A DNA stretch of 54,593 nt from a virus (Duplodnaviria; Caudoviricetes). The stretch is taken from positions 1 through 54,593 of IMG/VR virus record IMGVR_UViG_3300019360_000011. One strand, 5' to 3'. How positions within the stretch are numbered: the stretch's first letter is position 1; the number at the start of each line of letters is the position of its first letter. The notes under the pieces were generated by a model. That model ran no database searches. It was not told the origin of the DNA and was given only the letters and a program-made list of their open reading frames with translations. Both the position numbers and the translations under genes were made by a program. Positions 6,796-47,555 of this stretch are shown here, in pieces.

Positions 6796-8028
6796 TTACA
6801 GCTCTTCGGTGGGCTCCGGTCCGAGCTCTGTCTGGACCTCGACACCGGGTCTCGCCCAGATCGCGCGGGGTGGAAATCCTGTCGACATGCGCGACAGGCC
6901 GAGCGCCTTGCGGGCTCGCTCGACAAGACGCTCGCTGTGGTGCGCCTTCTTCGCAGCGTCTTTTATGTCGCTGGACCAAGCCCACCCGCTCTTCGTCTTC
7001 TCCATGAAGGACCGCAACCACTCTACTGCGTCGTTCGTCTTACCGGCGTTATTCGTAGCCACGTCATAGACCACATCGTTGATGGAGATCTCGCTCACCC
7101 CTTGCCACACGACGCGAGAGGTCCGCAATGCAAAGCCAGTCCCATTCACCTCAGTGCCCTCGATCGTGAAGAGCATCGTGGGTGAGTCATCACCGCTCAG
7201 TCCGGTGTTATTCTTCGGGACGCCGAGCAATCGTTGCTTGGGATTGTTCGGGTCACGTACGACGTACTGGACCGCACGTGATGTCGCTACGAACGCTCGG
7301 CTGCCCATCACGGTGGTCAGTGGGTCGCTGGCGTTGCTCTTGTTCACATGGATAACGCCGATGGTGGTCACGCTTGAGTCCTGGCTCAACTTCGCTATCG
7401 GCTCCAGTCCCTGGCGCACGGTCTGATCCTTGTGGCTGTCCAGCCTGCTACTCAGCCGCGACATGAGCGGATCAAGCAGCATCGCCACAGCGCGGGTCTC
7501 TTCCACCTTAGCCTGGATCTGTTTGATGTCGTCGGGTAGACTGAGGGTGAACTCGCCGATCTCCTCGACGTGCACGGTCGCCTTATAGACTAAGCCGAGA
7601 TCTGCTCCTGCTGCCATCAAGCGCGGAACCACCGTCTTAGGCCAGCTGTCCTCTGTCGCGACGATGATGACCGCGCGCGGTTCGCCGAAGAAGTGCCCGT
7701 GTAGCTGGCCTCGTGTTACGCGGGCGAGAAGCTCGTATCCGAGCGTGGACTTTCCCTCGTTCTCGCGCCCGGCGATCAGCGTCAACTCCCCGAGGGGGAT
7801 GCGTCCGATAGGCTGATCCCCAAAGTGCCGATGGAAACGTGGCGGGGGTGTCTCCTCCCAGAACCACAACGTCTGTTCGGGCCGGATCGAGTCGGCTCGG
7901 GTGAGTACCACCTTCCGCGCGGCGCTCTCCTCCTCACGCACCTGGCGTTCGGCGAGCTTATCGATGCGGCGGCTGACGATGCGCTCTTTCAGCTTCTTAG
8001 TGAGAGTAGAGTCCTCGACCTTTACCAC
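6796..8028 (-). CDS. RepA-like (AAA_25-type) replicative helicase
   Basis: GRENEGKST Walker A, LLDP Walker B, IHVNK, MGSRAF, KNN motifs. Confidence 0.85.
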   Translation of the reverse strand: MVKVEDSTLTKKLKERIVSRRIDKLAERQVREEESAARKVVLTRADSIRPEQTLWFWEETPPPRFHRHFGDQPIGRIPLGELTLIAGRENEGKSTLGYELLARVTRGQLHGHFFGEPRAVIIVATEDSWPKTVVPRLMAAGADLGLVYKATVHVEEIGEFTLSLPDDIKQIQAKVEETRAVAMLLDPLMSRLSSRLDSHKDQTVRQGLEPIAKLSQDSSVTTIGVIHVNKSNASDPLTTVMGSRAFVATSRAVQYVVRDPNNPKQRLLGVPKNNTGLSGDDSPTMLFTIEGTEVNGTGFALRTSRVVWQGVSEISINDVVYDVATNNAGKTNDAVEWLRSFMEKTKSGWAWSSDIKDAAKKAHHSERLVERARKALGLSRMSTGFPPRAIWARPGVEVQTELGPEPTEEL

Positions 8029-8915
8029 TTGACACCCCGCATGAGCCTGTCCACGATGCTGTCGTCCACGAGGGTGTCGAGCACCTCGCTGTTGATCTCG
8101 CCGACGCCGAGTGCCCTCCCGATCGCCCGGCGATGGTCACGGTCGCCAGGGGCGTAGGCACAGCCGTAGCGTCCGTCGTTGCCTAAGAAGGCGTTGTCGC
8201 GGTGGCGGTCGTGTCCCTCCTCGTGGCAGCGCGGGCACTGGAACTTGGCGCCCTTGGAGCGGCGACGGTGGCCCGGCTGGCGCCGAGCGCGCTCGTGCAT
8301 CTCCGCCGGGGTGGGTCCGCCCCAGGGCTCCTCCTCGGGGTGTCCCTCGGTAGACTCTGGGATCCAGGCGGGTCGCGCCTCGGTGGTGAGGTGCTCGAGC
8401 CACGCGGGTGGTAATACGTAGGCAGGCAGCAGCGGGTCGCCGATCCAGCGGTAGTGGCCTCCGGCGGGCACCCCGCGCTTCTCGCTCCCTGGGTACGGGG
8501 ACGGCGGCAGGAGCACCTGCTGCCTCGGGCCGCGGATCACGTCGCCCACCCGCTCGTCGCCTAACGCGAGCCGAGAGCTCAGGCTCACCTCGGGACGATG
8601 GAAATAGGCGTGCGTGCCGCCGCTCGGGCTCGTGCTGGTCAGGGGGATCGGGCCGAGCAGTGAGCAGAGGGTCTCGAGCGACCCGACGACGTCGAAGTCG
8701 AGCACTACGAGGCCGCTGGTGTAGACGTCTAGCCCGACGCCTCCTCCGCGCGACAGGTGGTTCCTGACTGCTCTGGGGTCAGAGGTCGAGCACTCCTCCC
8801 AGGTCCGGCCCGAGAGCAGCCTCTTGGTCCCCGGCTCCAGGAGGACCGCCGTCCAGTGTCGGTTCCGAATCGCGTCGAGAGTGGTGGCTAGGTCGTTCTC
8901 TGCCTGTGTCTTCAT
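8022..8915 (-). CDS. Bifunctional DNA primase/polymerase (prim-pol) with C-terminal Zn-binding region
   Basis: LVVLDFD, SPSGGTHAYF, VLLPPS motifs; CPRC...C. Confidence 0.85.
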   Translation of the reverse strand: MKTQAENDLATTLDAIRNRHWTAVLLEPGTKRLLSGRTWEECSTSDPRAVRNHLSRGGGVGLDVYTSGLVVLDFDVVGSLETLCSLLGPIPLTSTSPSGGTHAYFHRPEVSLSSRLALGDERVGDVIRGPRQQVLLPPSPYPGSEKRGVPAGGHYRWIGDPLLPAYVLPPAWLEHLTTEARPAWIPESTEGHPEEEPWGGPTPAEMHERARRQPGHRRRSKGAKFQCPRCHEEGHDRHRDNAFLGNDGRYGCAYAPGDRDHRRAIGRALGVGEINSEVLDTLVDDSIVDRLMRGVKW

Positions 8916-8924
8916 GAGACGTCC

Positions 8925-9143
8925 TCAGAAGAGGCGCAGCTGCGCGGGAGGAGCCGGTGGAGGGGTGGCAGGAGGCCTCTCCCTGTAGAGGGGCCCCTGT
9001 ACGTACACCCAGTCCCACAGCACTCGTCCACAGGGACAGACGCTACGGTCCGACACGAGCTGGCCAAGCCGGTACTCGTAGGCCAGAGACGCGATGACCA
9101 GCTCTCGGCACGACGGGCACCACTGTAGGGTCGTCTTAGGCAC
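8925..9143 (-). CDS. Small zinc-ribbon protein
   Basis: CPSC...CPCG. Confidence 0.5.
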   Translation of the reverse strand: MPKTTLQWCPSCRELVIASLAYEYRLGQLVSDRSVCPCGRVLWDWVYVQGPLYRERPPATPPPAPPAQLRLF

Positions 9144-9165
9144 CTAACTATCTCCCGAGTGGAAA

Positions 9166-9178
9166 ACTAAATTAAAGG
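9166..9178. promoter_or_regulatory. Operator-like box (one mismatch) upstream of the primase/helicase genes
   Basis: ACTAAATTAAAGG matches CCTAAATTAAAGG at 12 of 13 positions. Confidence 0.6.
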
Positions 9179-9365
9179 TTTGGAGCCGGGCCTCGGACTC
9201 CTAGGCGCTCCGTAGGGCTCCCGGCCGGGGGCCGGTCGGGGGAAGGGCTCGGCCGTAGGGCGCCGGCTCGGCTGGGACGGAGCCGTCCCGATCGCCGCCT
9301 CGGCGGGGGAGCCGCCGCTGCCCGACTATTGGAGCGCACCGCTACTGGTCGGCTGGATGGCTGTC

Positions 9366-10016
9366 TCATGCCGCTCCCCCCCACGCTGTCCGCATCGCGT
9401 CACGCTCTTCTCGCTGACCAGCGAGTCGATCCCAGTACTCTGGCGCTCCGAGGTACGGGGATGGTCCACGGTCGAGTCGCTCGAGGTGCCGCGTGTAGCG
9501 ACTCCTAGCGATGTTGCGTCGTGTCAGCGCGTCGGTAACGTACTGCGGTCGAGCGTCCTCTCGCGTCTTGTGGAGCTCCTCCTCGAGCCTCCAGGCAGCG
9601 AGCCGCATCGCGCAGAGGAGGGGATGACCAGGATGTGCGGCGACGTCGACGGACTCGAGCCACCTCTTGTGAGCCTCCTCGATGGGAGGGAAGGTGACCC
9701 GCCACGTGGCGCTGGTCGGAGGAGACAGAGGATGGAGATTGCTCTCGAAGCTGAACTCTCCTGGCAAGAACTGATGACGGTCAGGAATAAAGTCGAGCGG
9801 CGTCTCGACCACGATCCTCTCTGAGGAGAGCTTGACGACCTCGGTGATGAACACGAACGGGCAGTCGCAGTCCAGGCACCCCTCGCTGACGTATCCCTCC
9901 CCCGCCGTCGTGTCGTCGATCGCGTCTCGACCAGAGAGGTGTCTGGTCATCAGGTGTCGACAGGCCCCACATCGCAACAGGACGTCGTCCTCGTCAAGTA
10001 TCATCTCAGCAGCCAT
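9366..10016 (-). CDS. Hypothetical protein with Cys/His-rich N-terminus
   Basis: Start at MAAEM; CGACRH...H...C..CDC. Confidence 0.55.
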   Translation of the reverse strand: MAAEMILDEDDVLLRCGACRHLMTRHLSGRDAIDDTTAGEGYVSEGCLDCDCPFVFITEVVKLSSERIVVETPLDFIPDRHQFLPGEFSFESNLHPLSPPTSATWRVTFPPIEEAHKRWLESVDVAAHPGHPLLCAMRLAAWRLEEELHKTREDARPQYVTDALTRRNIARSRYTRHLERLDRGPSPYLGAPEYWDRLAGQREERDAMRTAWGGAA

Positions 10017-10054
10017 CGCTCTCGCGTTCCTCTCGTGGCAGGCGGGTCCAGTAG

Positions 10055-10383
10055 TCACGCGCCCTGTGCCCGGCTGGGGCATATGCGCTCATGCACGATT
10101 GGGAAATCGTCCCCGTGGGCCGCGTCGCCGTCTCGCAGGATCTCGTGGTGGTACATCCTGAAGTGGCACATCTCGTGGCGGGCGATGTAAGACTCGTCCT
10201 GCCTGCCGCAGCGAGAGACGTCGACGTTCACGATAAGGCGCGTCCGAAGCTGCCCGGCGATCGGGCGAGCGACCGCCTGAGCACACCGGTCGCTGACGAA
10301 GGAGGCTGGCTCGATCGTAGGGGTGTCCATCCCCATCACCCTGCCCAGAAGCGCAGGGCGACAGCGAGACGGTCGAGGCTCAA
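10055..10383 (-). CDS. Small SprT-like HExxH metallopeptidase, probably frameshifted near 10340
   Basis: IARHEMCH...HGDDF; upstream TTG ORF MSLDRLAVALRFWAG joins by a one-base shift. Confidence 0.5.
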
Positions 10384-10631
10384 CTGATCTTCTCGATTAG
10401 AGCCGTGAGCTCGGCGATCATGAGGCGCAGCTCTTCGGGGCCTCCGATCACCCACTGGTCGCAGGAGTGCGGGAGGTAGGCGCACGGGACCGGTGTCGGT
10501 CGGCCCTCCTCGTCCATCACCGCATACGGTGCGGTAGTGTGCTCTGGGTCATGGAAACACACTTCACCGTTGTCTGCCTCGGCGCAGACGCCTGGGACGT
10601 ACAGCTTCGCGTCGTCCTTCTCGTAGCTCAT
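10380..10631 (-). CDS. Hypothetical protein
   Basis: ATG 10631 with GGAG RBS; same strand as operon. Confidence 0.55.
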   Translation of the reverse strand: MSYEKDDAKLYVPGVCAEADNGEVCFHDPEHTTAPYAVMDEEGRPTPVPCAYLPHSCDQWVIGGPEELRLMIAELTALIEKIS

Positions 10632-10648
10632 GGCTCCACCCTTTCGTC

Positions 10649-10855
10649 TTAGACGATGAACCATCCTCCTCGGAAGTCGAGACGCCCCTCGCGGACGGCG
10701 TCCTGGATCCCCTGAGGTACCGGCTCACCCGGGCACTCCGTCGTGAGGGTCCTCTCGGCACCACCGCAGATGGCGCAGCAGAAGAGACCGCCGTCGCAGG
10801 TCGGGCAGCTGTCGAGCTGGCAGTCGACGTGTCGAACGCGGACGTGCTCTCTCAC
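10649..10855 (-). CDS. Cys-rich hypothetical protein
   Basis: CPTCDGGLFCCAICGGAE..LTTECPG; GTGA overlap. Confidence 0.55.
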   Translation of the reverse strand: MREHVRVRHVDCQLDSCPTCDGGLFCCAICGGAERTLTTECPGEPVPQGIQDAVREGRLDFRGGWFIV

Positions 10856-11013
10856 GACGTGACCTCTTTGAGTCGACCCATCTTCTGCTCGCACCTGCCT
10901 GGTCCGTGCTGGGCCCACATGTACGTGATCTTGCCGATCTCGTCGCGATAGGCGATGGGACGCCCGCAGCGCTCACAGTAGTCGATCGGCTTCTGCTTAG
11001 TGACCTTCATCAT
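10852..11013 (-). CDS. Small zinc-binding hypothetical protein
   Basis: CERCG...H...C; ATGA overlap. Confidence 0.5.
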   Translation of the reverse strand: MMKVTKQKPIDYCERCGRPIAYRDEIGKITYMWAQHGPGRCEQKMGRLKEVTS

Positions 11014-11162
11014 CTTCTCTCGTCCTCTGAACGTGGAAAACCGTAACCAAGGTTGGCCCCGGCCATGAGCGCGCACCAGAAGGCCCAGTAGGCGTGGCCC
11101 TCAGACAGGTCCAAGATGCCGAGAGCGATCCAGACCGCCAGGATCGCCTCTCTTGGTCTCAC
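11010..11162 (-). CDS. Small membrane protein
   Basis: Two hydrophobic segments; GTGA overlap. Confidence 0.45.
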   Translation of the reverse strand: MRPREAILAVWIALGILDLSEGHAYWAFWCALMAGANLGYGFPRSEDERR

Positions 11163-11341
11163 GATACCTTCTTGATCGGGTTCTGCGCGAGAGAGCGGAG
11201 CAGCTTCAACGTGAGGTCTTGGATGTACCCCTGTGCGCTCTCGTGCGTCGGGAAGCCAGCCACGCTCATGCTGCTGTTCCCCTCGGTGTCGAAGACCACC
11301 ACGGCGAAACCGTCGCCGTCCGGCATGATGCTGAACCTCAT
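11159..11341 (-). CDS. Hypothetical protein
   Basis: ATGA overlap and GGAG RBS. Confidence 0.5.
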   Translation of the reverse strand: MRFSIMPDGDGFAVVVFDTEGNSSMSVAGFPTHESAQGYIQDLTLKLLRSLAQNPIKKVS

Positions 11342-11682
11342 GGCTTCTCCTCTCCCTGCTGCCCACAGATACGACGCTCGAAGAGCATCTTGGCCTTCCA
11401 CTCGGCCTCGTTCAGGAGGCTCATGTTGCTCGGGACGTCACAGCCGCCACAGGCCAGCGGCACGATGTGGTCGACGTACCAGCCGCTCGGCTGGGCTTTC
11501 AGTCCGAGCCCACGTAGGAAGAGCCGCTTCCTGGACTCGCTCCTGACGAGCGTGCCGTGCACGTCACGGACGCGGCACGTCACGTCGGGAGTCGCCATCC
11601 CTGCCGGCCAGCGGCGAGCCGGCAGGTTGATGACGCGGAGCTCGAGAGCGGCTTGGAAAAGAAGCGCCGTGGCGGTCAGCAT
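11338..11682 (-). CDS. HNH endonuclease
   Basis: VDHIVPLACGGCDVPSNM. Confidence 0.75.
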   Translation of the reverse strand: MLTATALLFQAALELRVINLPARRWPAGMATPDVTCRVRDVHGTLVRSESRKRLFLRGLGLKAQPSGWYVDHIVPLACGGCDVPSNMSLLNEAEWKAKMLFERRICGQQGEEKP

Positions 11683-11861
11683 ACCAGCTCCTTCTCGGGG
11701 ACGACCTTGATGCCAGTCATGTCGATCCCCTCCTCGTCGATGACGTGGTCGTAGCCAGCCTCGACCAGCTTTCGATGGATCTCATCGAAGGCAGGAGCCG
11801 AGAGCTCCAGCTCCACGACCGTGTATGTCGATCTCACGCGGGGTCGTATCGGTTGAGCCAT
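11676..11861 (-). CDS. Hypothetical protein
   Basis: GGAGG RBS, fills operon gap. Confidence 0.55.
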   Translation of the reverse strand: MAQPIRPRVRSTYTVVELELSAPAFDEIHRKLVEAGYDHVIDEEGIDMTGIKVVPEKELVC

Positions 11862-11862
11862 G

Positions 11863-12519
11863 TCACACCTCCGTCGCGATGCAGGCCTCTCCGCCGGCGT
11901 CGATCAGCGCCTCCAGGTCTTGGTACGGGAGATAGGCTCGACCACCGATGCCCCAGCTCGTGCCCCAGCTGTTCTGGATGAGAGCCAGGCCACGAGCGTC
12001 GTCGTAGCCGATGAGGAGGTAGGCGTGGCCGCCGACCACCCGGCCGGACCGATGGATATCGTTGCCAGCGTCCGGCTTGAGCATCCCCTCGTACCAGTCC
12101 GTCCCGAGGACCAGCGGCCCGACCAGGCCGCAGGCGTCGAGAGCGTCGTTGACGTTGAACGCCCACCGGTACGTCGCGACGACGCTGACCGACTTCTTGA
12201 GGTAGACCGCTCCGCCGCGAACGGTCGTCCCGTCGTACGCCTCGCCGGGGATCCCGTCGACCTTCTGCGCCTCGGCGTAGATCGTGCTGGGCGCGATGGC
12301 GGCACCGCGGACTCGCGGCTCACTGCGAAGGAAGTGCTTCCAGGAGAAGCCGACGCAGTGCGGCTTGGCGCCCTGGTTCAGCCGCTCCGACATCGGCAGG
12401 TACCAGGTCCGGCGCTTCGGGCGGATCGGCGCGCCGAGGAGCGCAGCGTGCGAGCGGACCAGGTAGTCGTGGTCTCTCGGGTCGGGGTTCATGATACGAC
12501 CGAAGCTCGGCTGTCTCAT
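11863..12519 (-). CDS. Papain-like C1 cysteine peptidase
   Basis: NQG..PHCVGF, GGHAY, QNSWG catalytic motifs. Confidence 0.85.
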   Translation of the reverse strand: MRQPSFGRIMNPDPRDHDYLVRSHAALLGAPIRPKRRTWYLPMSERLNQGAKPHCVGFSWKHFLRSEPRVRGAAIAPSTIYAEAQKVDGIPGEAYDGTTVRGGAVYLKKSVSVVATYRWAFNVNDALDACGLVGPLVLGTDWYEGMLKPDAGNDIHRSGRVVGGHAYLLIGYDDARGLALIQNSWGTSWGIGGRAYLPYQDLEALIDAGGEACIATEV

Positions 12520-14248: not shown

Positions 14249-14809
14249 TTATTCCGTGAGCTGTGGGAGACCTGACCAGACACCGTCGTACTTGTCTGAC
14301 CGGAACGTACAGAAGTCGAAGATGTCGTCAGGTGACGCGGCGTACGCCGGGACACCAAAGTCGTACCCGGCGGTGCCGTAAGCCTCGGCGACGAGTCGGC
14401 TGCAGACGGCACGATGGCTAGGCCCAGCGAAGAGCCGTCGTGCGACGTTCTTGCCGGCGAATAGCTTCGTGTCCGTGAGCTGCGCGAAGAGCTGTGGGTA
14501 CCCGTATCGCTCTCCGATGCGACGGTAGGCTGCGTTCACGATCGTGGACAAGACGGTCTCGGAGATGTTCTTGGGACGAAAGGCGTAGCACATGTCTCGA
14601 GAGTGGAAATCGCTGAGAGCCCCATACCGAACCACGCTGTCTGACTCCACGATCCGCGCGAAGGCAGGGTGGCCGCCGCTGTGAACGATGATCGCGTGGT
14701 TGACGAGCGACCTCTCCTCGCCCGGTGAGGTCTGTCCCCACCGGACGAGTCGCGCGAACCGACTGTTCCCGCTCGAGAGAACGATGTCTCCCGCCTTGAG
14801 GAGCTTCAC
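14249..14809 (-). CDS. Permuted papain-like NlpC/P60 (YiiX/YebB-like) amidase/peptidase
   Basis: LKAGDIVL, NHAII, G.RYG, AVCSRLVAEAY, SPDD; His precedes Cys. Confidence 0.8.
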   Translation of the reverse strand: MKLLKAGDIVLSSGNSRFARLVRWGQTSPGEERSLVNHAIIVHSGGHPAFARIVESDSVVRYGALSDFHSRDMCYAFRPKNISETVLSTIVNAAYRRIGERYGYPQLFAQLTDTKLFAGKNVARRLFAGPSHRAVCSRLVAEAYGTAGYDFGVPAYAASPDDIFDFCTFRSDKYDGVWSGLPQLTE

Positions 14810-15528
14810 ATCTCGGCGGAGGGAGTCGCCTCCGCCTCGGGATCGGTCGCGTAGTCGACTCTCTTCTCCTTCCAGGAGTCGAAGACCTGCTGAGCAAAGT
14901 CGTAGAGCGCCTTGTCCTGGACGAAGCCCGCCTGGCGGACTGACCACCCGAACCAGGTCCCTTCGTCGTTCTTGTTCTGGACCGGGGTGAGCTGGTACAC
15001 GCAGGCGAAGAGCGGCACGGGCTTCATGCGGATCAGGCTGTTCAGCCGCATCGCGGTCTTGATCCCGGTGCTCTTGAAGGAGAGAGCGATCGGCTCCCGT
15101 TCCGGGAGCTTCAAGACCACGTAATCGTAGAACTTCGTGGCTACGGGTTTCACCCGATCTCCGTCGGGACCGTCGGTCCACTGGGCTCGCGGGTCGTTGG
15201 CCGGGACGTTGGCGTCGACGATCTCACGATCCTCTCCGAACTCCACGTGACGGGGCGGGTCGGCTCTCACGATGAGGACGTCGATCGGGGTCTTCCCGTA
15301 GATCTGTCCGGTGAGGTCGTTGAACCCGTCACCGAGCTTCAGGCCGTCGATGTACAGAGGATCGGTCTCGATCATCTGCGGACTGAGGCCCTGAGCGAGG
15401 CTGAGCCGAGGAGGTCTGATGTCGTCTTTCCCGATGTGCTCGGTCCCGCGCGTGTCACCAGACGTGATGAAATCCGGCATCTCCATCATCGACGTCTCGG
15501 TCTTCTTTACCATCTCTTGCTTACCCAT
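14806..15528 (-). CDS. Probable ssDNA-binding protein
   Basis: PRLSLAQGLSPQ, KNDEGTWFGW, acidic C-terminal tail; replication context. Confidence 0.55.
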   Translation of the reverse strand: MGKQEMVKKTETSMMEMPDFITSGDTRGTEHIGKDDIRPPRLSLAQGLSPQMIETDPLYIDGLKLGDGFNDLTGQIYGKTPIDVLIVRADPPRHVEFGEDREIVDANVPANDPRAQWTDGPDGDRVKPVATKFYDYVVLKLPEREPIALSFKSTGIKTAMRLNSLIRMKPVPLFACVYQLTPVQNKNDEGTWFGWSVRQAGFVQDKALYDFAQQVFDSWKEKRVDYATDPEAEATPSAEM

Positions 15529-15532
15529 GACG

Positions 15533-16009
15533 TTACTTCCTCCAGACCGCCTTGTTCTTGAAGAAGACCTCGACGCCAGGCGGTGCGTCGTGTCCTGCCA
15601 AGAGCCGCTCCTTCACGAGCGACTGCGTGGCGCTGGGCCAGAGGTGCATCGCGTGCTCCATGCCTTCTGAGACGCACCACTGACGATAAGCTTCTTTGTC
15701 TGCGATACTCGCGTACGGCTCCGGCTGGAGAGCGACGCTCCCTCCGTCTGCCATGTCCAGCTTCCTGAGACCCTCAGCCTCGTAGCTGTCTTCCATGAGC
15801 TGGACGAGAGCCTCGAGCTCTAGGTTGATCGGAGAGAGGCTCTCCTCGATCTGTTCTTTACTGGCACGAAGCATGGTGTAACGTCGTGCCAGAGCAGCGG
15901 CGGTCTTCTCCTCGATCTCGGCCTTCTTCAGGTCGATACGCGACTGGTAATCGGTCTGCTCACGAGGGAGCCGCGCCAGAGTGTCCATCACCCGATCGTA
16001 CTTGCCCAT
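15533..16009 (-). CDS. Conserved phage replication-region protein (coiled coil)
   Basis: Between helicase and SSB; VKERL..G...PPGV C-terminus. Confidence 0.6.
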   Translation of the reverse strand: MGKYDRVMDTLARLPREQTDYQSRIDLKKAEIEEKTAAALARRYTMLRASKEQIEESLSPINLELEALVQLMEDSYEAEGLRKLDMADGGSVALQPEPYASIADKEAYRQWCVSEGMEHAMHLWPSATQSLVKERLLAGHDAPPGVEVFFKNKAVWRK

Positions 16010-20210: not shown

Positions 20211-20602
20211 AGGTAGACCTCGCCCTGGTATCGCAGGGCCGTGACGAGCCTCTCGACATGGCTCTTGGTCTTTGAAGACATGATGATCTCGTCTCCACGG
20301 AGTAGCGTCGAGAGCGACTGAGCCCGGTTGAAACCAGCCATCTTGGCGAGCTCCTCTCTCGTGAGACGTGAGCCCAGTATCGCTGTCCTGAACGTCTCGG
20401 TCAGCTTGACACGAGGATCGATCTTTCGTCCCTGCCCACGGCGATTCCCGTGGTGCCCGTTCTTCAGCTTGAAGTGCTTGGAGAGAGCTGACTGGACGAT
20501 GAGAGACAGAGAGGCTCCACGACGATTCGCCTCTTTGTCTAGCGCGTTGCGGAGCGACCTGGTGATGAAGGCTCCAAGAAAGACGTCCCGCCGCTCGCTC
20601 AA
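20207..20602 (-). CDS. Transcription regulator, ribbon-helix-helix plus HTH
   Basis: N-terminal Arc/CopG-like beta-helix-helix; C-terminal LTREELAKMAG..AQSLSTLLRG HTH. Confidence 0.6.
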   Translation of the reverse strand: MSERRDVFLGAFITRSLRNALDKEANRRGASLSLIVQSALSKHFKLKNGHHGNRRGQGRKIDPRVKLTETFRTAILGSRLTREELAKMAGFNRAQSLSTLLRGDEIIMSSKTKSHVERLVTALRYQGEVYL

Positions 20603-21426
20603 GGGTATCTCCTCTTCAGACGGTCTCCTCTCAGTGCGCGCTCGTACTTGTCAAACTCGCAGGCCCAGTGCTCGACCTCTCGCATCTCCCAGTGCCGCCA
20701 GGCAGCTGGCCAGTAGAGCGTATCTCGACTATAGGCGAGCAGGGTCTGCATCAGGTCGAGCATCTCGGCCTGCCCGGAGGCTGAGCCGTAGTGGAAATGG
20801 TTCGGGTCATCGCGCAGCACTCTCCCGAGCCCGCGCGCGCATCCCGGGCCTGCCGCAGCCCACGTCATTCGGTCTTCGGCGTCCGCCAGAACAGGAGTCC
20901 AGCGCAGGTCAGAGACGACCTCGTAGGCCATGAAGGACCCGAAGCACTGCAAGGCCTGTAGCTCCCGCCAAGACTCCCTGAGACTGGAACCGATCTCGAG
21001 CTTCGGGATCAGACGCCGTGCCTTACCGAGGCACTGCAAGATCCCATCCAGCTTGTTCATCCCCCACGGGGAGTTGATGATGTAGGCTCCGGTCGTCAGT
21101 GGCCTGACGTCCTTGAGCCGCTTACGAACCACGTGTGTGTCCCAGGTACCAGAGACGAGAAAGTCTCTGATCAGCTGCCCGGTCTCGATCCTGTTGAACC
21201 ATCGGAACGCGACCGTGGAGAAGACCGCGGTCTCTCTCGTCAGATGAGATCTCACGTTCTCACGGAACCAGACCGTCGTCTTGTCGTCTTCTCGATGAAC
21301 GTTACAGAACCGCCAGGCAGAGAGGATGGGGTCGGTCGTCCACGGGACGTCCTCTCCCGCGAACCGTCGGAGCTTCATCCGGTATCTCTCGCGAGCGGTC
21401 GCGAAGAATCGGTCGATCAGGACCAC
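20599..21426 (-). CDS. aGPT-Pplase1-type protein (5-hmdU DNA kinase helical domain)
   Basis: ER...PWTTDPIL..WRFCNVHREDD, FRWFN, FMAYEVVSDL, GPG..RGL, EHWACEFDKY. Confidence 0.85.
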   Translation of the reverse strand: MVLIDRFFATARERYRMKLRRFAGEDVPWTTDPILSAWRFCNVHREDDKTTVWFRENVRSHLTRETAVFSTVAFRWFNRIETGQLIRDFLVSGTWDTHVVRKRLKDVRPLTTGAYIINSPWGMNKLDGILQCLGKARRLIPKLEIGSSLRESWRELQALQCFGSFMAYEVVSDLRWTPVLADAEDRMTWAAAGPGCARGLGRVLRDDPNHFHYGSASGQAEMLDLMQTLLAYSRDTLYWPAAWRHWEMREVEHWACEFDKYERALRGDRLKRRYP

Positions 21427-21980
21427 CCGAGTGCTCCCAGAGCGCGCACCGCCGCGAGGTCACGGTCTTGAAACTTCTCGACGGCCACGTTGTTCGTACG
21501 CAGGTGCTCGGCGTTCCTCAGGGTATCGCGCGCGCGGCCGATGGTATTCTTCGGGTTGAGCGGACGTGTGTCACCACGCGCCTCACGTCGCGCACGAATC
21601 CCCTCGAGACACATCTCGATCGGCACGTCCAGGACGATGATGAGTGTTGGAAATCTGGCGGCAGCGGCTGCCGCTCGTCTCCAGTCGCTCTGGACCAGCG
21701 CGCCACCCTCGTAGATGACGTCGTACCCACGCTCGGCGGCTCCGTTCACCTGAGCATAGATGTCGTCGATCCGGTCGATCGTGTCGGCGCCACCGCAGCG
21801 TGTCTCGTAGTGCCCGACGACCCAGAGGTTCGGGCCACCGTCGGCACGGTAACACGTGTAACCGTAGGGCTGCTTGCGGCCGGGCGTCATGGCCGGATCG
21901 CGCTCGGCGTAGCGTTCCATGACCTTACGGACGATCGTGGACTTGCCTGAGCCAAAGGTACCGCGAGGGTTGACGATCAT
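21417..21980 (-). CDS. P-loop nucleotide kinase of hypermodification clusters
   Basis: RGTFGSGKST, GHYETRCGGADTI, YEG, C...IRARR. Confidence 0.8.
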   Translation of the reverse strand: MIVNPRGTFGSGKSTIVRKVMERYAERDPAMTPGRKQPYGYTCYRADGGPNLWVVGHYETRCGGADTIDRIDDIYAQVNGAAERGYDVIYEGGALVQSDWRRAAAAAARFPTLIIVLDVPIEMCLEGIRARREARGDTRPLNPKNTIGRARDTLRNAEHLRTNNVAVEKFQDRDLAAVRALGALGWS

Positions 21981-22023: not shown

Positions 22024-22631
22024 GTGTTTTTTGGAGTGTAGATCACGCCACCACCGTTCTGCGTAGCGTCGAGCGTATCGACGAGCTGGTTGAAGCGCGC
22101 TAAGAAGAGATCCTCCGCCTCTGACCAGTCCATCTTGGCCCTCCATCCTGTCTCGGCGAAGACGCGTCCTAGAACTTCTTCCTCCTCCAACGAGACAGGA
22201 GGATACCCCGGAACGCCGAGACCTGCCGTATCGAAGGCATTGTGGTACTCGTAGCGGACCATTGTCTTGTCCCCGTGCTCGACGCCAGGGTCGAGCGCGA
22301 CAGGACACCCGAATCGGGCGTAGATCTGCCGCTGGAGGTCGTCTTCTACCCGGCGATAGAACTCCATCTCCGGGACGCTCTTCAGCCACTTCGTCATGTC
22401 GCCGACGTATGCCTCAGCCGCATCGTGGAGGAGGCCCTGGAGCGGCGGCACGCCGGGGAGAAGAGAGACCCCGACGGAGTGCTGGGCGACGCTGATCGGC
22501 CACCGGCTGTGCCCGGCGAACCGATTGCACAGCGCGAGCGCATGGGCGATGTCAGTGATGACGATGTCGTCGAGCGTCATCGCCGTCGGGTCCACCCGAC
22601 GACCCGAGTGTGTCGTGATGAACGGCTTCAC
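22014..22631 (-). CDS. HD-domain 5'-deoxynucleotidase (YfbR-like)
   Basis: DIAHAL...RFAGH, SVAQHS, LLHDAAEAY.GD. Confidence 0.85.
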   Translation of the reverse strand: MKPFITTHSGRRVDPTAMTLDDIVITDIAHALALCNRFAGHSRWPISVAQHSVGVSLLPGVPPLQGLLHDAAEAYVGDMTKWLKSVPEMEFYRRVEDDLQRQIYARFGCPVALDPGVEHGDKTMVRYEYHNAFDTAGLGVPGYPPVSLEEEEVLGRVFAETGWRAKMDWSEAEDLFLARFNQLVDTLDATQNGGGVIYTPKNTLL

Positions 22632-23074
22632 GGTACCTCCTCGAGAAGGAACTGCTCAAATGCCTTGTTCTTCAGGAGTTGATGGCCTCGAGCCTCTCGA
22701 GCCACGATGATGAGATCCTTCGGTGACTGACCAGTATGGTACATCAGGGCCAGGACACCGATCAGCGCGCTCCGGTTCCACCCGCTGTCACAGTGGACCA
22801 AGACCGCGTGATACGGGAGTCGACTCGCGACATCCTTAGCGATCGTCCTCACGAGGAATCGATCCATCTTGTTCCCAGAGTCGTGGAGCGGGACGTGACG
22901 ATACTCGATGCCGACAGTCCTGCAGCCTCCAGCCAGAATGGGGTCGTTGATCAGCGCCACGTTCACGACCATCTGGATCTGTCGCTCAGCGAGAGCAGCG
23001 AGTACTCGCTCCGTGTCGATGTGCCTGGTGTGCGGCCGGATGAAGAGTCGGGGATGTAGCGCGTAGAAGTTCAT
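22628..23074 (-). CDS. Dual-specificity/tyrosine-phosphatase-like protein
   Basis: VLVHCDSGWNRS (CX5R) and upstream PLHD acid loop. Confidence 0.85.
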   Translation of the reverse strand: MNFYALHPRLFIRPHTRHIDTERVLAALAERQIQMVVNVALINDPILAGGCRTVGIEYRHVPLHDSGNKMDRFLVRTIAKDVASRLPYHAVLVHCDSGWNRSALIGVLALMYHTGQSPKDLIIVAREARGHQLLKNKAFEQFLLEEVP

Positions 23075-24066
23075 GGCGTCCCTCGCTTGACAGGGTTGGA
23101 AAAGTCGGTGGTGGCTCTGTAGTCGTAGAGCCCGTCGGACCAGGTGTAACCATGAGCCGAGAGGACTCGACCCAGGTTCTTCAGCCTCTCGCTCGGATCC
23201 CAGCCCTGTATCTCTCCGAGAGCCCAGACCGGAGAGAGCAGAGGACGGACACGCATGTGATCCGTACGGCGTTCTCCCCAGTACTCGGCGACCGTTCGCT
23301 CGTAGGCGAGCTCGCTGTCGAGAGAACGCCCAGGGAACTGACGCTTCGTGCTGAAGCTGGTCTTGTACTCGCAGAGGAGGACCTCCAGCTCGAAGTAAGA
23401 CATCTCTGGGTACATCGCCTTGAGGATACCGGCCCGCTCGTTGGCAAAGTATAGAGCAGACGGAGAGTCGTCATGCACGTCGTAAGACGCGACGTCTGAG
23501 CCGAAGATCAGGTTGAGCCCAGCACGAGGACTCCATCCGCCCTTCGGTCTGATGTCTCTCACAGGTGCAGAAGCCAGCCCAAGACGATACCAGATCTCGC
23601 AGAGCTTGGTCGCCGCGTAACGCCCGACGTGAGGGAGCCGCATGGCGAAGCGCCAGAGCTCATCGAATGACATCCGGTGCATCTCTCCCGACATTGCGGC
23701 GTCAGTCGTCGGGTCAACCCCGTCACAATAGTCGAGGAAGCGATCTCCGTGCGTCGGGTCCAGCCCAACAGTCTTGCGTTCTCGTCTGAACCGGATACCA
23801 TCCCAGTGCTCCCGGACCCACGCGTGGAGCTCAGAAGGACGAGGTGGGGTTGGAAACCGTGTCCAGATGGCCTCGGCGGACGGGACGTTGTACACGCCGA
23901 CGTATAGCGCGGCGCGCCAGACCTTCTCGACGAGCGGGAGGTCTTTGCAGAGGTAGACCACCGCACGCATGTGCGGATCTGGACCACCAGTCAAGCGCTC
24001 GTAGTGACAGAACTCATTGAAGAACTTGAGATGGTTCACCACACCATCCTCGAGAATTTTCGTCAT
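23071..24066 (-). CDS. aGPT-Pplase2-type amino acid:DNA transferase
   Basis: TGGPDP, RRERK, VGRY, ELEVLLCEYK, FPG motifs; ATGA-coupled to the polymerase. Confidence 0.7.
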   Translation of the reverse strand: MTKILEDGVVNHLKFFNEFCHYERLTGGPDPHMRAVVYLCKDLPLVEKVWRAALYVGVYNVPSAEAIWTRFPTPPRPSELHAWVREHWDGIRFRRERKTVGLDPTHGDRFLDYCDGVDPTTDAAMSGEMHRMSFDELWRFAMRLPHVGRYAATKLCEIWYRLGLASAPVRDIRPKGGWSPRAGLNLIFGSDVASYDVHDDSPSALYFANERAGILKAMYPEMSYFELEVLLCEYKTSFSTKRQFPGRSLDSELAYERTVAEYWGERRTDHMRVRPLLSPVWALGEIQGWDPSERLKNLGRVLSAHGYTWSDGLYDYRATTDFSNPVKRGTP

Positions 24067-25895
24067 GCTGCTTTCGCCTCCTGCCAATTCTCTCCGACGC
24101 CGACCGCCCAGAGGAGCGGCACGACGGTCTTCAAGACCTGTGTGTTCAAGATCTCCTCGACCATCCGTGCTGCCTCACGATCAGGCACATCCCCGTTGAC
24201 CTCATCGTGGACGAGGAAGCGAAGCTTGAACCCGGTCTTCTTCCTCGCTCGGTGCAGCATCAGAGCCTTCGTCTTCATCTCGTCGGCGGCAGAACCCTGG
24301 ACGACGCCGTTGAGCGCGGCGTAGGTCGGCATCCCCGGTGGAAATCGGCGACGACGACCGAGCTTCGTCTTCACGTAACCCCGGGACTCTGCCAGGCTCG
24401 AGGTGTACCGGAGGAGGCGCTCCGCCTCGGGGAAGGCGCGGTCGTACACCGCGATGAACCTCTTAGCCTCGCTCTCCCTCAAACCGAGCATCCGAGCGAT
24501 CTTCTTGAGCTGCGCTCCGTAGATCTTCGCGAAGTTCGTGTCTTTCGTCTTCTCCCTGGTGACGCTCGGGAAGATTGGCTTGATCATCTCGTTCATCACG
24601 ATGTTATGGAAATCCGTCCTCGGGTCACGAGCGTATGCCGCCAGGACCTTTGGAGGCTTAGCGTAGTCGGCGAAGAGACGATACTCGATCTGCTCGGCAT
24701 CGGCCGACAACCAGAGTCCCTCACCGGGGACGAAGAGCTCCCGAACGATATAGCCTTGGAGCTCCGTGTCGTTCCCTACCGACTGGAGCTGCTTCTTGCC
24801 AGCCACCTGCTGGATGTTGACGCCTTCGTCCGGGTCCGTCCCGAAGGAGCTGCTGGAGTATCGCCCGCTGCGTGTTCCGCCCTCATCGTCTATCGGCATC
24901 TGATGGAGGCTGTAACGCAGGATCCCGTTTCGGCGTAGCTCCTCCCGATACCTCACTAGAAACTTGCTTCGCAGGCTGGCCAGCGATCGGGCGCGGTTCA
25001 CGAGGTTGACGACCGGGTGGTCGACCTCGCGCATACGCGCGCGACTGAAGGAGATCTTCCCCACCTCTTCCGGGTCGTCGCTGATCGGAGGTGGCAGCTG
25101 TAGGTGCTCGAAGAGACGGATCATGTCAGGACGAGAACGCACGTTGATGTTTAGACCGGTCAGTCGATGGATCTCCCAGAGGGTTGCGACGTAGTCCTGC
25201 TCTGAGCGTGTGAGCCAGAGGTCGAGCTTCTCCTCGTTCAATGGAGCGCCGTTCCTCATCATGTCACAGGTCACGTAGACCAGCTCGTCCTCAAGCTCTC
25301 GGACTGCCTCGAGACCCTCCTGCTGCATGACCGGGCGAAACTTCGCCAAGAGCTCCACACAGAGGAGCGTGTCGCGACGTGCGTACTCAGCCACGTCTGC
25401 AGCATGGTAGTCCCGCATCCGACTCTTGTTCAACCCGACGTCGAGCTTCCCGTAACCGAGATAGTGCTTGGAGACAGCGTCGAGACTCGTCCGTGTCCGA
25501 GTGTCGTCAATCAGAGCAGCGTGGTTCCCGACGTCCATCAGTCGGCAGCCCTGTGCCTCTAGGTCGATGCCCCAGGCATAGGCCATGTTGACGTCAAAGG
25601 GGAGGTTGAACCCGATGACAGTCTTGTCACGCAGCTCCTGTCGCATCCATCGCTTGATGGAGCTCTCGTCAAGATTTCCACCAGCGTGTCCAGTCGGTAG
25701 ATACCAGCTTCGTCCATCGGCAGTGGCGACAGCGACCCCGACGGGGAGGTCTCCGCCCCACCACCGAAGACCGGTGGTCTCTAGGTCAAGATAGACCTCT
25801 GAGACTCCGGAGAGGTCCGGCGGGCTCTGAGGACGCCAGTCGCCGGGGTCGGTGGCCGGGGCGATCTCGAAGAGGCTACGCTGGGCGGGCGGCAC
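24063..25895 (-). CDS. polA: Family A DNA polymerase with 3'-5' exonuclease
   Basis: DLETTG, FN..FD, YA..D exonuclease motifs; SGRYSS; DAEQIEYR, REKTKDTNFAKIYG and VHDE motifs A-C. Confidence 0.95.
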   Translation of the reverse strand: MPPAQRSLFEIAPATDPGDWRPQSPPDLSGVSEVYLDLETTGLRWWGGDLPVGVAVATADGRSWYLPTGHAGGNLDESSIKRWMRQELRDKTVIGFNLPFDVNMAYAWGIDLEAQGCRLMDVGNHAALIDDTRTRTSLDAVSKHYLGYGKLDVGLNKSRMRDYHAADVAEYARRDTLLCVELLAKFRPVMQQEGLEAVRELEDELVYVTCDMMRNGAPLNEEKLDLWLTRSEQDYVATLWEIHRLTGLNINVRSRPDMIRLFEHLQLPPPISDDPEEVGKISFSRARMREVDHPVVNLVNRARSLASLRSKFLVRYREELRRNGILRYSLHQMPIDDEGGTRSGRYSSSSFGTDPDEGVNIQQVAGKKQLQSVGNDTELQGYIVRELFVPGEGLWLSADAEQIEYRLFADYAKPPKVLAAYARDPRTDFHNIVMNEMIKPIFPSVTREKTKDTNFAKIYGAQLKKIARMLGLRESEAKRFIAVYDRAFPEAERLLRYTSSLAESRGYVKTKLGRRRRFPPGMPTYAALNGVVQGSAADEMKTKALMLHRARKKTGFKLRFLVHDEVNGDVPDREAARMVEEILNTQVLKTVVPLLWAVGVGENWQEAKAA

Positions 25896-45085: not shown

Positions 45086-45511
45086 TCAGATGCGCTCCCA
45101 GTTCAACGTCTGCGCCCAGGTCCCGGCGAGGAGTGACGCCTCCTCTAGGAGAGGCCTCTCCAGATACTTCGGGCCGGTGCCTGCCTTCTTGAAGCGGACC
45201 GGATTCCCGGAAGCCTCCGCGATCTTCCAGCTCCGAGGACTCGAGGCCGAGAGATGCTCATGGATGGCGACAGCGTACGGGATCCCGGCTCCTCCGAAGA
45301 CCACCCGCTGCGCGTATCCCTTCTCTGACTTCTCGATCCGACCGCTGTCATGCAGGGTGCCCATGTCGTACGGGACGAGCTGCTGTGCCTTCTGCAGGAC
45401 TCGCTCACACGACTCTTCGACCGCATCGGGAATCTTCGCCTGTAGGCGGTCTCTGAACGCACGGATTCCTCCGGTCAGAGTGTCGTTCGTACGGATGTAG
45501 AACTTGATCAC
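45086..45511 (-). CDS. HK97 gp10-like tail-completion/neck protein
   Basis: AQQLVPYDMGTLHDSG, YAVAIHE, KYLERP. Confidence 0.8.
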   Translation of the reverse strand: MIKFYIRTNDTLTGGIRAFRDRLQAKIPDAVEESCERVLQKAQQLVPYDMGTLHDSGRIEKSEKGYAQRVVFGGAGIPYAVAIHEHLSASSPRSWKIAEASGNPVRFKKAGTGPKYLERPLLEEASLLAGTWAQTLNWERI

Positions 45512-46701
45512 GCGGTGACAACCTCCGGTGAGACTCCCAGCTTCTTAGGAGTGAGCACGCTCTTCACGACGTCAGCGAACCGTTCACCGATGTTCTTCCA
45601 GCGGTATCGCTCCTGGAGAACGAGCTCGAGCCCCGCCCCGGCCAGACGCTCACGCTCAGCCTTGTCGGAGTACAGGTGATTCAACGCTGCGACCGTCATC
45701 CCACGATCGGGGACGCCACCGATGACGTTGATGTCGTTCGGCGTGCACGAGACGCTCGAGCACTCGACGAGCCACGCAGCAGTCGCCGCCCACTCCCCGA
45801 GAGCCGACCAGTCCGGGACGATCTGCGGAACCCCGCACGCCATCCCCTCCATATGCGTCAGGCCCCAGCCTTCTCCCTGCGTCGTCGAGAGCATGACGTC
45901 GAACGCGCTGTACATCTCGGCGAGAGCGCGTTCTTCGACTCCAAGACCCATCTCCGGAGAAGAGATGATGAGCCGATTGGAAATCTTGAGGTACCGGCCA
46001 AGCTGCTCGAGGTCGTACCCAGCGTCACCAGTCGGACCGACGTGGAGGAAGAGATATGCATCCCGGACGTCGTGAGTCCGGACCCACTCCGCGAAGTAGA
46101 CCAGCGCAAGGTCCAAGCGCTTCCTCGGCTGGTTCCGACCGACGACACCGACGATGAACGCGTCTCTCAACGCGCCGAGCCGCAGTCGATCACGGACCTC
46201 TGATCGTCGATACGGCTTGTACACGTCGAGGTCGACGCCGAGCGGGATCACGTTCGCCTCTCCGGTGAACCCACCCTGCCGAGCTTGAAAGAGCCCGAAG
46301 TCCGTCCAGAAGACTGCGTTCGCGAGACCGTTCAGGCCAGCGCCTCGACAGTTGAGCCCGTCCACGGCCACCGACGCGACCGCAGGCGTGTTCCCGATCC
46401 TCTTCACGTACTCTGGGATGTTCCACGGATCGTTCGTCACGCACACGACGTCGGGTCTCAGCCGCTCGACGAGCTCTTTCGTCCGCTTCAACCCAAAGGC
46501 GTCACCGCCAGCATACCCGTAGCACGGGTACACCGGCACCTTCAACTTGTGCGGGTCTCCGAGGTAGTTCAGCGCGAGAACGTGCACGTCCCATCCCGCT
46601 GCGACGAGCCCGTCGACATAGGCGTGATTCAACCTCGCGAAGCCAGACGAGACGACTGCATCCCCGATCAACAGTACACGATGTTTGCCAGTGGTGTTCA
46701 C
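45508..46701 (-). CDS. GT-B (GT4-like) glycosyltransferase
   Basis: SGFAR, IPLGVD, GRNQPRK, GEGWGL..MEGMACGVP. Confidence 0.9.
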   Translation of the reverse strand: MNTTGKHRVLLIGDAVVSSGFARLNHAYVDGLVAAGWDVHVLALNYLGDPHKLKVPVYPCYGYAGGDAFGLKRTKELVERLRPDVVCVTNDPWNIPEYVKRIGNTPAVASVAVDGLNCRGAGLNGLANAVFWTDFGLFQARQGGFTGEANVIPLGVDLDVYKPYRRSEVRDRLRLGALRDAFIVGVVGRNQPRKRLDLALVYFAEWVRTHDVRDAYLFLHVGPTGDAGYDLEQLGRYLKISNRLIISSPEMGLGVEERALAEMYSAFDVMLSTTQGEGWGLTHMEGMACGVPQIVPDWSALGEWAATAAWLVECSSVSCTPNDINVIGGVPDRGMTVAALNHLYSDKAERERLAGAGLELVLQERYRWKNIGERFADVVKSVLTPKKLGVSPEVVTA

Positions 46702-47555
46702 GACAAGATCTCCTTCCAGAATCCTTCTGCGATCGTCTTCCAGTCAAATCGACGAAGAACGATCTCTCGCTCCGCCTCGGTGACTGCGTACCACGGGCCA
46801 CTCAAGATCGGCAAGAGCTGCTCCACGAGAGCTGATCCAGAGCACTCTTCGACGAAGACCGCGTGTCCTGCGTACCACTGCTTCATGTCAGAGCGGCTGA
46901 ACACGATCGGACGAGCTCCACACGCGAGTCCCTCCAAGACCGGGAGCTCAAAGCCTTCGACGTAACGCAGCCCAGAGACCCATCGCGCTCGTCCATACTC
47001 CTTAGCCAGAGATGCATCAGAGATCCCGAGCGCCGCGCGCCATCGCGGTGATGGACGCCACTTTGCTCCCGCAACAGCCGCTGGACCGAGATGAAAGACC
47101 TTCATGCGGAGATGATCAGCCGCTAGAGCGACCTCTTCGATCGCCTCAGCACCAGGACCGGTCAAGAACCCACTCGTCACGACCCCGTCACGGTCAGCAC
47201 CGTTTCCCTTGAAGACGTCTCCGTCAACCCCGAGCGGAGCGTGGTAGAAACGGCCGTGGACCGGGAGGTCTCCGTAGTAGCTCCAGACTAGACGAGCTCC
47301 CTGCCAGAAGCTCTGCCAGTCTTGGACTTCTCGCGCTGGGTTCGTCTTCCAGCAGTACTGGATCACCGCGTAGCTCTTCGTGCGCACCAGAGAGCGCGGG
47401 TACCCACCGATCACGTGGCAGATCTGCAGATCAGCGTCACCCGGATCATTCGCGATCGTGACAGTCGGAGGCGCGTAGCGCCTCAACGCGTCGCCAACCC
47501 GACGCATCGCTCGACTCACCGATGCACCAGGGAGCGGATCAACGTAGGCTCTCAC
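46698..47555 (-). CDS. GT-B glycosyltransferase
   Basis: PLGVD, EGFELPVLEGLACG, FDW. Confidence 0.85.
   Translation of the reverse strand: MRAYVDPLPGASVSRAMRRVGDALRRYAPPTVTIANDPGDADLQICHVIGGYPRSLVRTKSYAVIQYCWKTNPAREVQDWQSFWQGARLVWSYYGDLPVHGRFYHAPLGVDGDVFKGNGADRDGVVTSGFLTGPGAEAIEEVALAADHLRMKVFHLGPAAVAGAKWRPSPRWRAALGISDASLAKEYGRARWVSGLRYVEGFELPVLEGLACGARPIVFSRSDMKQWYAGHAVFVEECSGSALVEQLLPILSGPWYAVTEAEREIVLRRFDWKTIAEGFWKEILS

Follow-up and report, generated by a model that had tools for sequence, protein, structure and literature searches.

Why should a phage encode a small cysteine phosphatase directly after a DNA transferase? The question is raised by the IMG/VR virus record IMGVR_UViG_3300019360_000011 (Duplodnaviria; Caudoviricetes), a 54,593-bp sequence with direct terminal repeats and a listed completeness value of 75, which was analyzed over its whole length (hereafter, the window). 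In it, the gene of a dual-specificity phosphatase (DSP) follows that of a divergent amino acid:DNA transferase (ADDT). This arrangement recurs throughout a deep clade of ADDTs, and we regard the phosphatase as one of three core enzymes, the other two being the ADDT and a P-loop DNA kinase, in a separate branch of 5-hydroxymethyl-pyrimidine hypermodification systems. As to its substrate, the gene context leads us to propose, with moderate confidence, that the enzyme removes the phosphate of a phosphorylated donor, i.e., of a cyclitol-type nucleophile used by this ADDT clade, before or after the transfer.

The open reading frame (ORF) in question, 148 aa long, lies at 22628-23074 on the minus strand and contains VLVHCDSGWNRSAL, that is, the P-loop H94-C95-D-S-G-W-N-R101-S102. 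It scores above the cut-off with Pfam DSPc (PF00782; 39.2 bits vs. 33.5, E 7.5e-10), the sole Pfam family matched, and no match to the inositol monophosphatase (IMPase) family was obtained in the same scan; PHROG 10650, “dual specificity phosphatase,” matches as well (E 9.4e-10). The start codon of the gene (ATG, 23074-23072) lies on the stop codon of the upstream ADDT gene (TGA, 23073-23071), and its own stop codon (TGA, 22630-22628) on the start codon of the downstream HD phosphohydrolase gene (GTG, 22631-22629). Thus, both the intact loop and the ATGA and GTGA overlaps on the two sides of the gene, which a first-pass annotation of this DNA had reported, are read directly from the sequence. 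The motif is no chance occurrence, and the ORF is a genuine, conserved gene.

The AlphaFold2 model of the protein (input of 25 sequences, mean pLDDT 96.7) resembles DUSP18, DUSP10, DUSP5, DUSP28, DUSP22, and Tk-PTP in a Foldseek search (TM 0.72-0.79, identity approximately 20-24%), and the top 60 matches of a profile search of PDB sequences are again generic DUSPs or archaeal PTPs. Residues D65, C95, G98, N100, R101, R129, and N136 are invariant across 25 aligned relatives, the CX5R[S/T/A] motif is kept in 54 out of 55 distinct phosphatase domains, the 55th being truncated at the end of its locus, and an Asp precedes the Cys by 24-36 residues in 48 out of 54 domains. In the window, D65, 30 residues before C95, is by its position the putative general acid. 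Because this catalytic set is conserved, the phosphatase looks like an active hydrolase; its fold and sequence point to no substrate.

Viral contigs were scanned with ADDT alignments, and stop-to-stop ORFs were then scored with hidden Markov models (HMMs) built in this analysis. The relatives are metagenomic contigs throughout, their ORFs were called mechanically, and the counts refer to clusters at 90% identity. The 42 contigs retrieved, including the window, form 34 clusters at 90% ADDT identity, with the phosphatase in 33 and the kinase in 32 of them. When loci found from the side of the inositol-3-phosphate synthase (MIPS) are added, the tree contains 52 ADDT clusters, split with SH-aLRT support of 100 into four canonical ADDTs, all without the phosphatase (L112, L113, L115, and L122), and a 48-cluster clade including the window. 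In 47 of these 48 clusters, whose ADDTs are 32-58% identical to that of the window, the phosphatase lies directly downstream of the ADDT; the kinase is present in 47 out of 52 clusters, and the order ADDT-phosphatase-kinase is nearly constant. The sole exception in the clade, L064 (4989-5945), sits on a long branch and has no phosphatase or kinase within 5 kb; a homologue of the HD gene of the window is found just upstream of its ADDT. The ADDT, DSPc, kinase, and other assignments were confirmed by Pfam on the submitted subset.

The same association is seen from the side of the phosphatase. Searches seeded with it yielded three viral and three metagenome loci, all with an adjoining ADDT, and a fourth metagenome locus with a weak match over 38 residues only. 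Trees of the ADDT and of the phosphatase, each built on 17 lineages, recover the same well-supported groups, namely (window, L010, L003, L004), (L017, L019, L028), and (L021, L022, L023). Moreover, the proteins are fused: a 503-aa ORF in two contigs comprises an ADDT (residues 3-333) and the phosphatase (351-486), and in one contig (L020) the phosphatase and the P-loop kinase are joined in a single 354-aa ORF. When 1.84 billion representatives were searched exhaustively with a profile, 235 ADDT-clade proteins were retrieved at E<=1e-30, the best 150 of which, taken as 50% identity representatives, include 13 ADDT-phosphatase fusions, 136 ADDTs alone, and one double ADDT; CX5RS is kept in 13 out of 13 fusions. 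Co-occurrence of DSP or PTP genes with aGPT-Pplase2 genes, which the first-pass annotation had set as a test of its proposal, is therefore observed at the level of gene neighborhoods, tree groups, and fusions alike.

As a control, the DSP of Gordonia phage Yvonnetastic matches the phosphatase HMM, and neither an ADDT nor the kinase nor MIPS is encoded within 4 kb of it; hence, the linkage is a trait of this ADDT clade and not of phage DSPs in general. A tblastn search with the window ADDT against 50,697 phage records gave no match, the window phosphatase matched only Gordonia phage DSPs in unrelated context among cultured phages, and the L024 fusion gave weak matches there to its ADDT part only. 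The scan of 185,579 bacterial and archaeal species genomes with ADDT alignments revealed no relative, a single-sequence scan of viral contigs with the window phosphatase found nothing, and a search for longer phosphatase homologues was dominated by eukaryotic DUSPs and yielded nothing useful. The module is absent from the cultured phages and the bacterial and archaeal genomes searched, and the clade is so far purely metagenomic. Two other candidate readings, a pseudo-phosphatase and a host-takeover enzyme, were dropped in view of the conserved catalytic set and the ADDT linkage.

A clue to the donor comes from MIPS, whose gene lies directly upstream of the ADDT in 32 of the 48 clusters of the clade (several of the clusters without it have contigs ending at the ADDT and are hence not evaluable). 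The proteins upstream of the ADDT score 116-126 bits with Pfam Inos-1-P_synth, and the three of them compared with NCBIfam match TIGR03450, inositol-3-phosphate synthase, over the full length (positions 1-355) at 472-534 bits, below the equivalog cut-off of 638. A MIPS-seeded scan gave 224 viral relatives, the best 80 of which were examined: 34 of these loci contain an ADDT and the DSP-type phosphatase, 26 have a mini-HAD protein instead of the latter, none has both, and 20 have neither, at least four of these being cut by the contig end. The mini-HAD is 116-148 aa long, is encoded within approximately 1 kb after MIPS, and carries the motifs DxDGV, TGR, K, and EDD. Structurally, its model (pLDDT 86) comes closest to HAD phosphatases (TM 0.54-0.59, E 4e-4 to 1e-3), namely, the 3'-phosphatase of T4 Pnkp, lipin/Pah, and the LNS2 of Nir2; Pfam support is weak. 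One of the canonical loci, L112, combines ADDT, kinase, MIPS, and mini-HAD, with no DSP-type phosphatase.

The first-pass annotation had left two mechanisms side by side, an editing step on unreacted 5-phosphomethyl-dU in DNA and the removal of phosphate from a phosphorylated nucleophile installed by the transferase. The adjacency to MIPS and the mutual exclusion of the two phosphatases favor the second one, and the first stays as a rival. In the window, the genes that would carry out the proposed pathway belong to one minus-strand operon, listed here in the direction of transcription.

24063..25895, minus strand: family A DNA polymerase (PolA) with 3'-5' exonuclease, first gene of the coupled run; Pfam DNA_pol_A 154.9 bits, DNA_pol_A_exo1 29.4 bits
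23071..24087, minus strand: divergent ADDT, or aGPT-Pplase2-like DNA transferase; Pfam PF18724 28.9 bits, a marginal assignment at a cut-off of 26.2; C239 invariant
22628..23074, minus strand: dual-specificity (CX5R) cysteine phosphatase, 148 aa; ORF, motif, Pfam DSPc, AlphaFold2 model, DUSP fold, and invariant residues
22014..22631, minus strand: HD-type phosphohydrolase; phrog_318 “deoxyribonucleoside 5' monophosphate phosphatase,” E 8.9e-42, no Pfam match
21417..21980, minus strand: P-loop kinase, putative catalytic part of a 5-hydroxymethyl-dU DNA kinase; Pfam AAA_33 35.8 bits
20599..21426, minus strand: helical domain of a 5-hydroxymethyl-dU DNA kinase (formerly aGPT-Pplase1) as a separate gene; Pfam HMUDK_hel 145.7 bits
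20207..20602, minus strand: 131-aa operon protein; no Pfam, PHROG, or NCBIfam match, one homologue, in L010
19212..20210, minus strand: ThyA-like pyrimidine hydroxymethylase; Pfam Thymidylat_synt 72.8 bits, MilA the best solved relative (75 bits)

Successive 4-nt overlaps indicate that PolA, ADDT, phosphatase, and HD hydrolase are translationally coupled. The true start of the ADDT is likely the ATG at 24066, given its ATGA overlap with the PolA stop codon and a GGAGG 10 nt upstream; C239 of this protein is invariant in 17 sequences and is followed by E or D. The HD phosphohydrolase, with orthologues in L003, L010, and L004 (identity 44-52%), is probably a dNMP 5'-nucleotidase shaping the nucleotide pool. 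The kinase and helical-domain genes overlap by 10 nt (window 20599-21980), and this split of the 5-hydroxymethyl-dU DNA kinase recurs in many relatives, whose orthologous kinases match HMUDK_HMUD1 or Ploopntkinase3, HMUDK_HMUD1 being reached in relatives only. The hydroxymethylase has Asn where the CMP 5-hydroxymethylase MilA has Asp, which we take, by the base-specificity rule, to fit a uracil substrate, and the enzyme is probably dUMP-specific. No host can be assigned to the window phage, since the tblastn matches of its PolA are approximately 28% identical and spread over phages of many hosts.

In the pathway that we propose, the ThyA-like hydroxymethylase would supply 5-hydroxymethyl-dU (5-hmdU) for DNA, and the P-loop and helical kinase proteins, judging by their families, would convert it to 5-phosphomethyl-dU (5-PmdU). 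The ADDT, via its conserved Cys, would then expel the phosphate of 5-PmdU and add a nucleophile, as in the phages M6 and ViI. The gene context suggests that this nucleophile would be a phosphorylated polyol, in most relatives D-myo-inositol-3-phosphate made by the phage MIPS, and that the phosphatase would then strip the donor phosphate. Removal after formation of the adduct on DNA seems preferable, because the phosphatase is universal in the clade and MIPS optional, because it is fused to DNA-acting partners (ADDT and kinase) and not to MIPS, because it follows the ADDT, whereas the mini-HAD follows MIPS, and because it is mostly basic (pI at least 8.6 in 19 out of 25 sequences). Furthermore, a fusion with the ADDT argues against the phosphatase destroying the own substrate of its partner.

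Dephosphorylation might instead precede the transfer, the phosphatase producing free myo-inositol from inositol-3-phosphate in the manner of an IMPase, with the ADDT transferring the free polyol. No other phosphatase is recognized in the MIPS-bearing cassettes, and elsewhere the mini-HAD directly follows MIPS even at loci without ADDT or kinase matches (e.g., the QueC-type clusters), as would fit synthesis of free inositol. However, phages without MIPS keep the phosphatase in every case seen, though their hosts would supply the precursor and normally also its phosphatase; besides, the ADDT gene separates the phosphatase from MIPS, and none of the fusions involves MIPS. We thus find such a supply of the donor rather unlikely.

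Another candidate substrate is the phosphorylated base itself. An enzyme returning to 5-hmdU those 5-PmdU bases that the ADDT has left unused would avoid packaging of a labile, negatively charged phospho-base, and the characterized pathway has no known phosphomonoester other than 5-PmdU, as far as the available text of PMC8989533 goes. The universal presence of the phosphatase, with MIPS or without it, the position of its gene between those of the ADDT and the kinase, and a basic pI suited to work near DNA all agree with this editing. On the other hand, the 13 ADDT fusions and the kinase fusion would tether the enzyme to a domain whose substrate or product it destroys, and the exclusion of the mini-HAD in MIPS cassettes (34, 26, and none with both) is left unexplained. 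Moreover, L112 and the characterized systems, as described in the available part of PMC8989533, do without a DSP-type phosphatase, so that there is no general need for such a clean-up, and we hold it to be unlikely. Finally, although the phosphatase shares its fold with generic protein DUSPs and cultured Gordonia phages have DSPs without an ADDT, kinase, or MIPS within 4 kb, it is very improbable that the enzyme is a protein phosphatase of host takeover, or a nucleotide, DNA-end, or pyrophosphate phosphatase merely sharing the operon, given the linkage in 47 out of 48 clusters over ADDTs only 32-58% identical to that of the window, the shared tree groups, and the recurrent fusion.

Several observations weigh against removal of a donor phosphate. 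The window record has no match to PF01658 (MIPS), a 100%-complete relative likewise lacks MIPS, and in at least 11 evaluable clusters the phosphatase occurs with no MIPS nearby. The phosphatase is tied more tightly to the ADDT and the kinase than to MIPS; any substrate generated by these two enzymes, including 5-PmdU, would therefore fit. The phosphatase of the window subclade is found on a long branch and has a differing P-loop, and PTEN, myotubularin, Siw14, laforin, or PTP-like phytase are not among the nearest relatives (top 50 Foldseek and top 60 PDB profile matches). In addition, several HMMs (those for kinase, MIPS, rSAM, and HAD) were later used to score the very loci that had supplied their sequences, and only a subset was confirmed by Pfam. 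A further point concerns the radical-SAM (rSAM) protein considered below, since its match to BtrN spans only 80 residues, in the auxiliary-cluster domain.

If a donor phosphate is nevertheless what the phosphatase removes, the donor of the window phage would be host-made, as this phage has no MIPS, and it may differ from that of the MIPS-bearing relatives, given the P-loop DSGW in the window subclade instead of xAGR as in other phosphatases of the clade, and the long branch of the subclade. The accessory genes of the ADDT-phosphatase loci bear on this point. They include FkbM or other methyltransferases, and a homologous SPASM radical-SAM gene, which accompanies MIPS in L042 and L045 and is also found in the MIPS-less sister lineages of the window, L003, L004, and L010. 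The sole solved-structure sequence match of this rSAM protein is BtrN (E 5e-10), the aminocyclitol dehydrogenase of butirosin synthesis. In L016, the phosphatase is directly followed (8396-11291) by genes of a GFO/IDH/MocA oxidoreductase, a DegT aminotransferase, and a methyltransferase; the best NCBIfam match of the IolG-like oxidoreductase is inositol 2-dehydrogenase (107 bits, far below the cut-off), and the set looks like one for aminocyclitol synthesis. We count the rSAM gene of the lineages without MIPS and the IolG-like and DegT genes of L016 as signs of a cyclitol theme that would be consistent with a phosphorylated cyclitol donor.

A more specific version may be put forward tentatively, namely, that the ADDT links the uracil C5-methylene to a ring hydroxyl of a phosphorylated cyclitol and that the phosphatase acts on the DNA, yielding neutral 5-(inosityl-O-methyl)uracil with lineage-specific tailoring. 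The cyclitol would be inositol-3-phosphate, made by the phage or the host, and the tailoring in some lineages could comprise O-methylation (FkbM), oxidation (BtrN-like rSAM or IolG-like enzymes), and amination (DegT). An ADDT using an oxygen nucleophile has a precedent, since gp247 of ViI uses the hydroxyl of serine, as described in the available part of PMC8989533. If true, this base would be the cyclitol counterpart of base J and the first DNA base to bear a cyclitol, and it would also be the first case of a cysteine phosphatase with a DNA base adduct as its substrate.

Some loci show other features of DNA modification. In the subclade of L017, L019, L028, L052, and L066, a ParB_N protein and a TET/JBP dioxygenase precede the ADDT-phosphatase-kinase module, with no ThyA-like gene detected in the stretches retrieved for these loci; hence, the hydroxymethyl-pyrimidine would there be made on DNA, and it could be either 5hmC or 5hmU. 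L015 encodes a C-5 cytosine DNA methyltransferase (9386-10477) within a MIPS-ADDT-phosphatase-kinase cassette that also holds a ThyA-like gene. In L020, the gene directly after the phosphatase-kinase fusion (9141-12515) encodes a 1,124-aa DNA polymerase III alpha protein with a C-terminal domain of the uracil-DNA-glycosylase superfamily (residues 973-1107). In L111, L117, and L130 (also L099), MIPS, with or without the mini-HAD, adjoins 7-deazaguanine-type DNA modification genes, which encode QueC-like proteins, methyltransferases, and GTP cyclohydrolase I, and cyclitol decoration may not be limited to pyrimidines.

Elsewhere in the window, a sugar-type cassette (45508-49775, minus strand) lies between capsid and tail genes; it contains the following genes and two further ORFs without assignment.

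48729-49775, minus strand: DegT/DnrJ/EryC1 aminotransferase, 270.7 bits
48247-48732, minus strand: hexapeptide acyltransferase
45508-46701, minus strand: GT4 glycosyltransferase

This cassette might serve to glycosylate the virion, the modified base being a less likely target. The replication module (14806-16009 and 6796-8915) encodes proteins similar to gp34 and gp33 of Pam3, together with adjacent PrimPol and primase/polymerase-like proteins; all of these are ordinary and may help to place the phage.

The aGPT-Pplases are said to have been named by Iyer et al. in 2013. The toolbox of thymidine hypermodification, as given in the available part of PMC8989533, consists of kinase, ADDT, PLP, rSAM, flavin, and acetyltransferase enzymes, with no phosphatase and no cyclitol donor; in that text, “phosphatase” occurs once, as a remark on sample preparation, and “inositol,” “DSP,” and “tyrosine” do not occur. 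It thus agrees with the initial impression that the phosphatase family is not among the characterized enzymes of thymidine hypermodification. In the accessible portions of PMC13326640 and of a 2023 glycosyltransferase preprint, “inositol” turns up only where homologous enzymes are named, and every phosphatase referred to is a reagent, a dCTP pyrophosphatase, or one of the HAD enzymes whose substrates are arabinose phosphates. Our literature searches revealed no paper tying ADDT systems to inositol synthesis or to a phosphatase of the DSP type, an earlier mention in Iyer et al. 2013 or the supplements of PMC8989533 being possible.

Thymidine hypermodification is a main phage route to escape restriction, and here an ADDT clade of 235 representatives (E<=1e-30) is obligately paired with a cysteine phosphatase, repeatedly fused to it, and often accompanied by MIPS. 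Such recurrent pairing suggests that viral DNA modification includes a step not yet described, and it provides a concrete set of three or four enzymes that could be reconstituted on 5-hmdU DNA in search of a new base. It also suggests a general logic of donor choice by a “phosphate handle” and, possibly, a new enzyme for site-specific derivatization of DNA.

Compared with the characterized kinase and ADDT pairs, i.e., M6 gp54/gp51, ViI gp243/gp247, PhiW-14 gp37/gp109, and PaMx11 gp49/gp46 (available part of PMC8989533), the window system likewise has a putative ThyA-like hydroxymethylase, a P-loop kinase with the HMUDK helical domain, and an ADDT with a conserved Cys, located near replication genes. 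It differs in that its ADDTs form a deep, separate clade, with Pfam scores at, just above, or, in some members, below the cut-off, paired with a cysteine phosphatase and often with MIPS, FkbM methyltransferases, or a SPASM rSAM protein, whereas the PLP, flavin, and acetyltransferase tailoring genes described in the available part of PMC8989533 do not accompany it. The viral cassettes with MIPS and mini-HAD share MIPS, a small phosphatase, an FkbM methyltransferase, and aGPT-Pplase/HMUDK_hel-type proteins, but their phosphatase has an unrelated fold and directly follows MIPS, while that of the window type follows the ADDT. A similar contrast is seen with the mycobacterial pathway of MIPS and inositol monophosphatase (PMC2834668, as far as its available text goes): MIPS and phosphatase genes are found together in 32 out of 48 clusters, but here the phosphatase is a Cys-based DSP, follows a DNA transferase, and also occurs without MIPS.

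The phosphatase itself has the minimal fold of about 150 aa, the HCX5RS loop, the Asp 30 residues upstream, and the C-terminal RP...N..F motif in common with the atypical DUSPs (DUSP10, DUSP18, DUSP22, DUSP28, and the archaeal Tk-PTP). At an identity of approximately 20-24%, it differs from them in being phage-borne, locked to DNA-modifying enzymes, and equipped with the P-loop DSGW (xAGR elsewhere in the clade), and it is unlikely to act on proteins. Examples of cysteine phosphatases whose substrates are not proteins are PTEN, myotubularins, laforin, and the RNA 5'-phosphatases BVP and PIR1. Siw14 and other PFA-DSPs act as inositol pyrophosphatases (PMC10653929 and PMC13573052, in their available parts). 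All these enzymes are a functional precedent for CX5R phosphatases acting on inositol phosphates, glucans, and nucleic-acid phosphates, with no specific similarity in sequence or fold to the window phosphatase. Taken together, the system is a variant of the kinase/ADDT pathway of thymidine hypermodification, and its phosphatase, by sequence and predicted fold, is a true member of the DSP family, outside the known inositol- or glucan-specific subfamilies.

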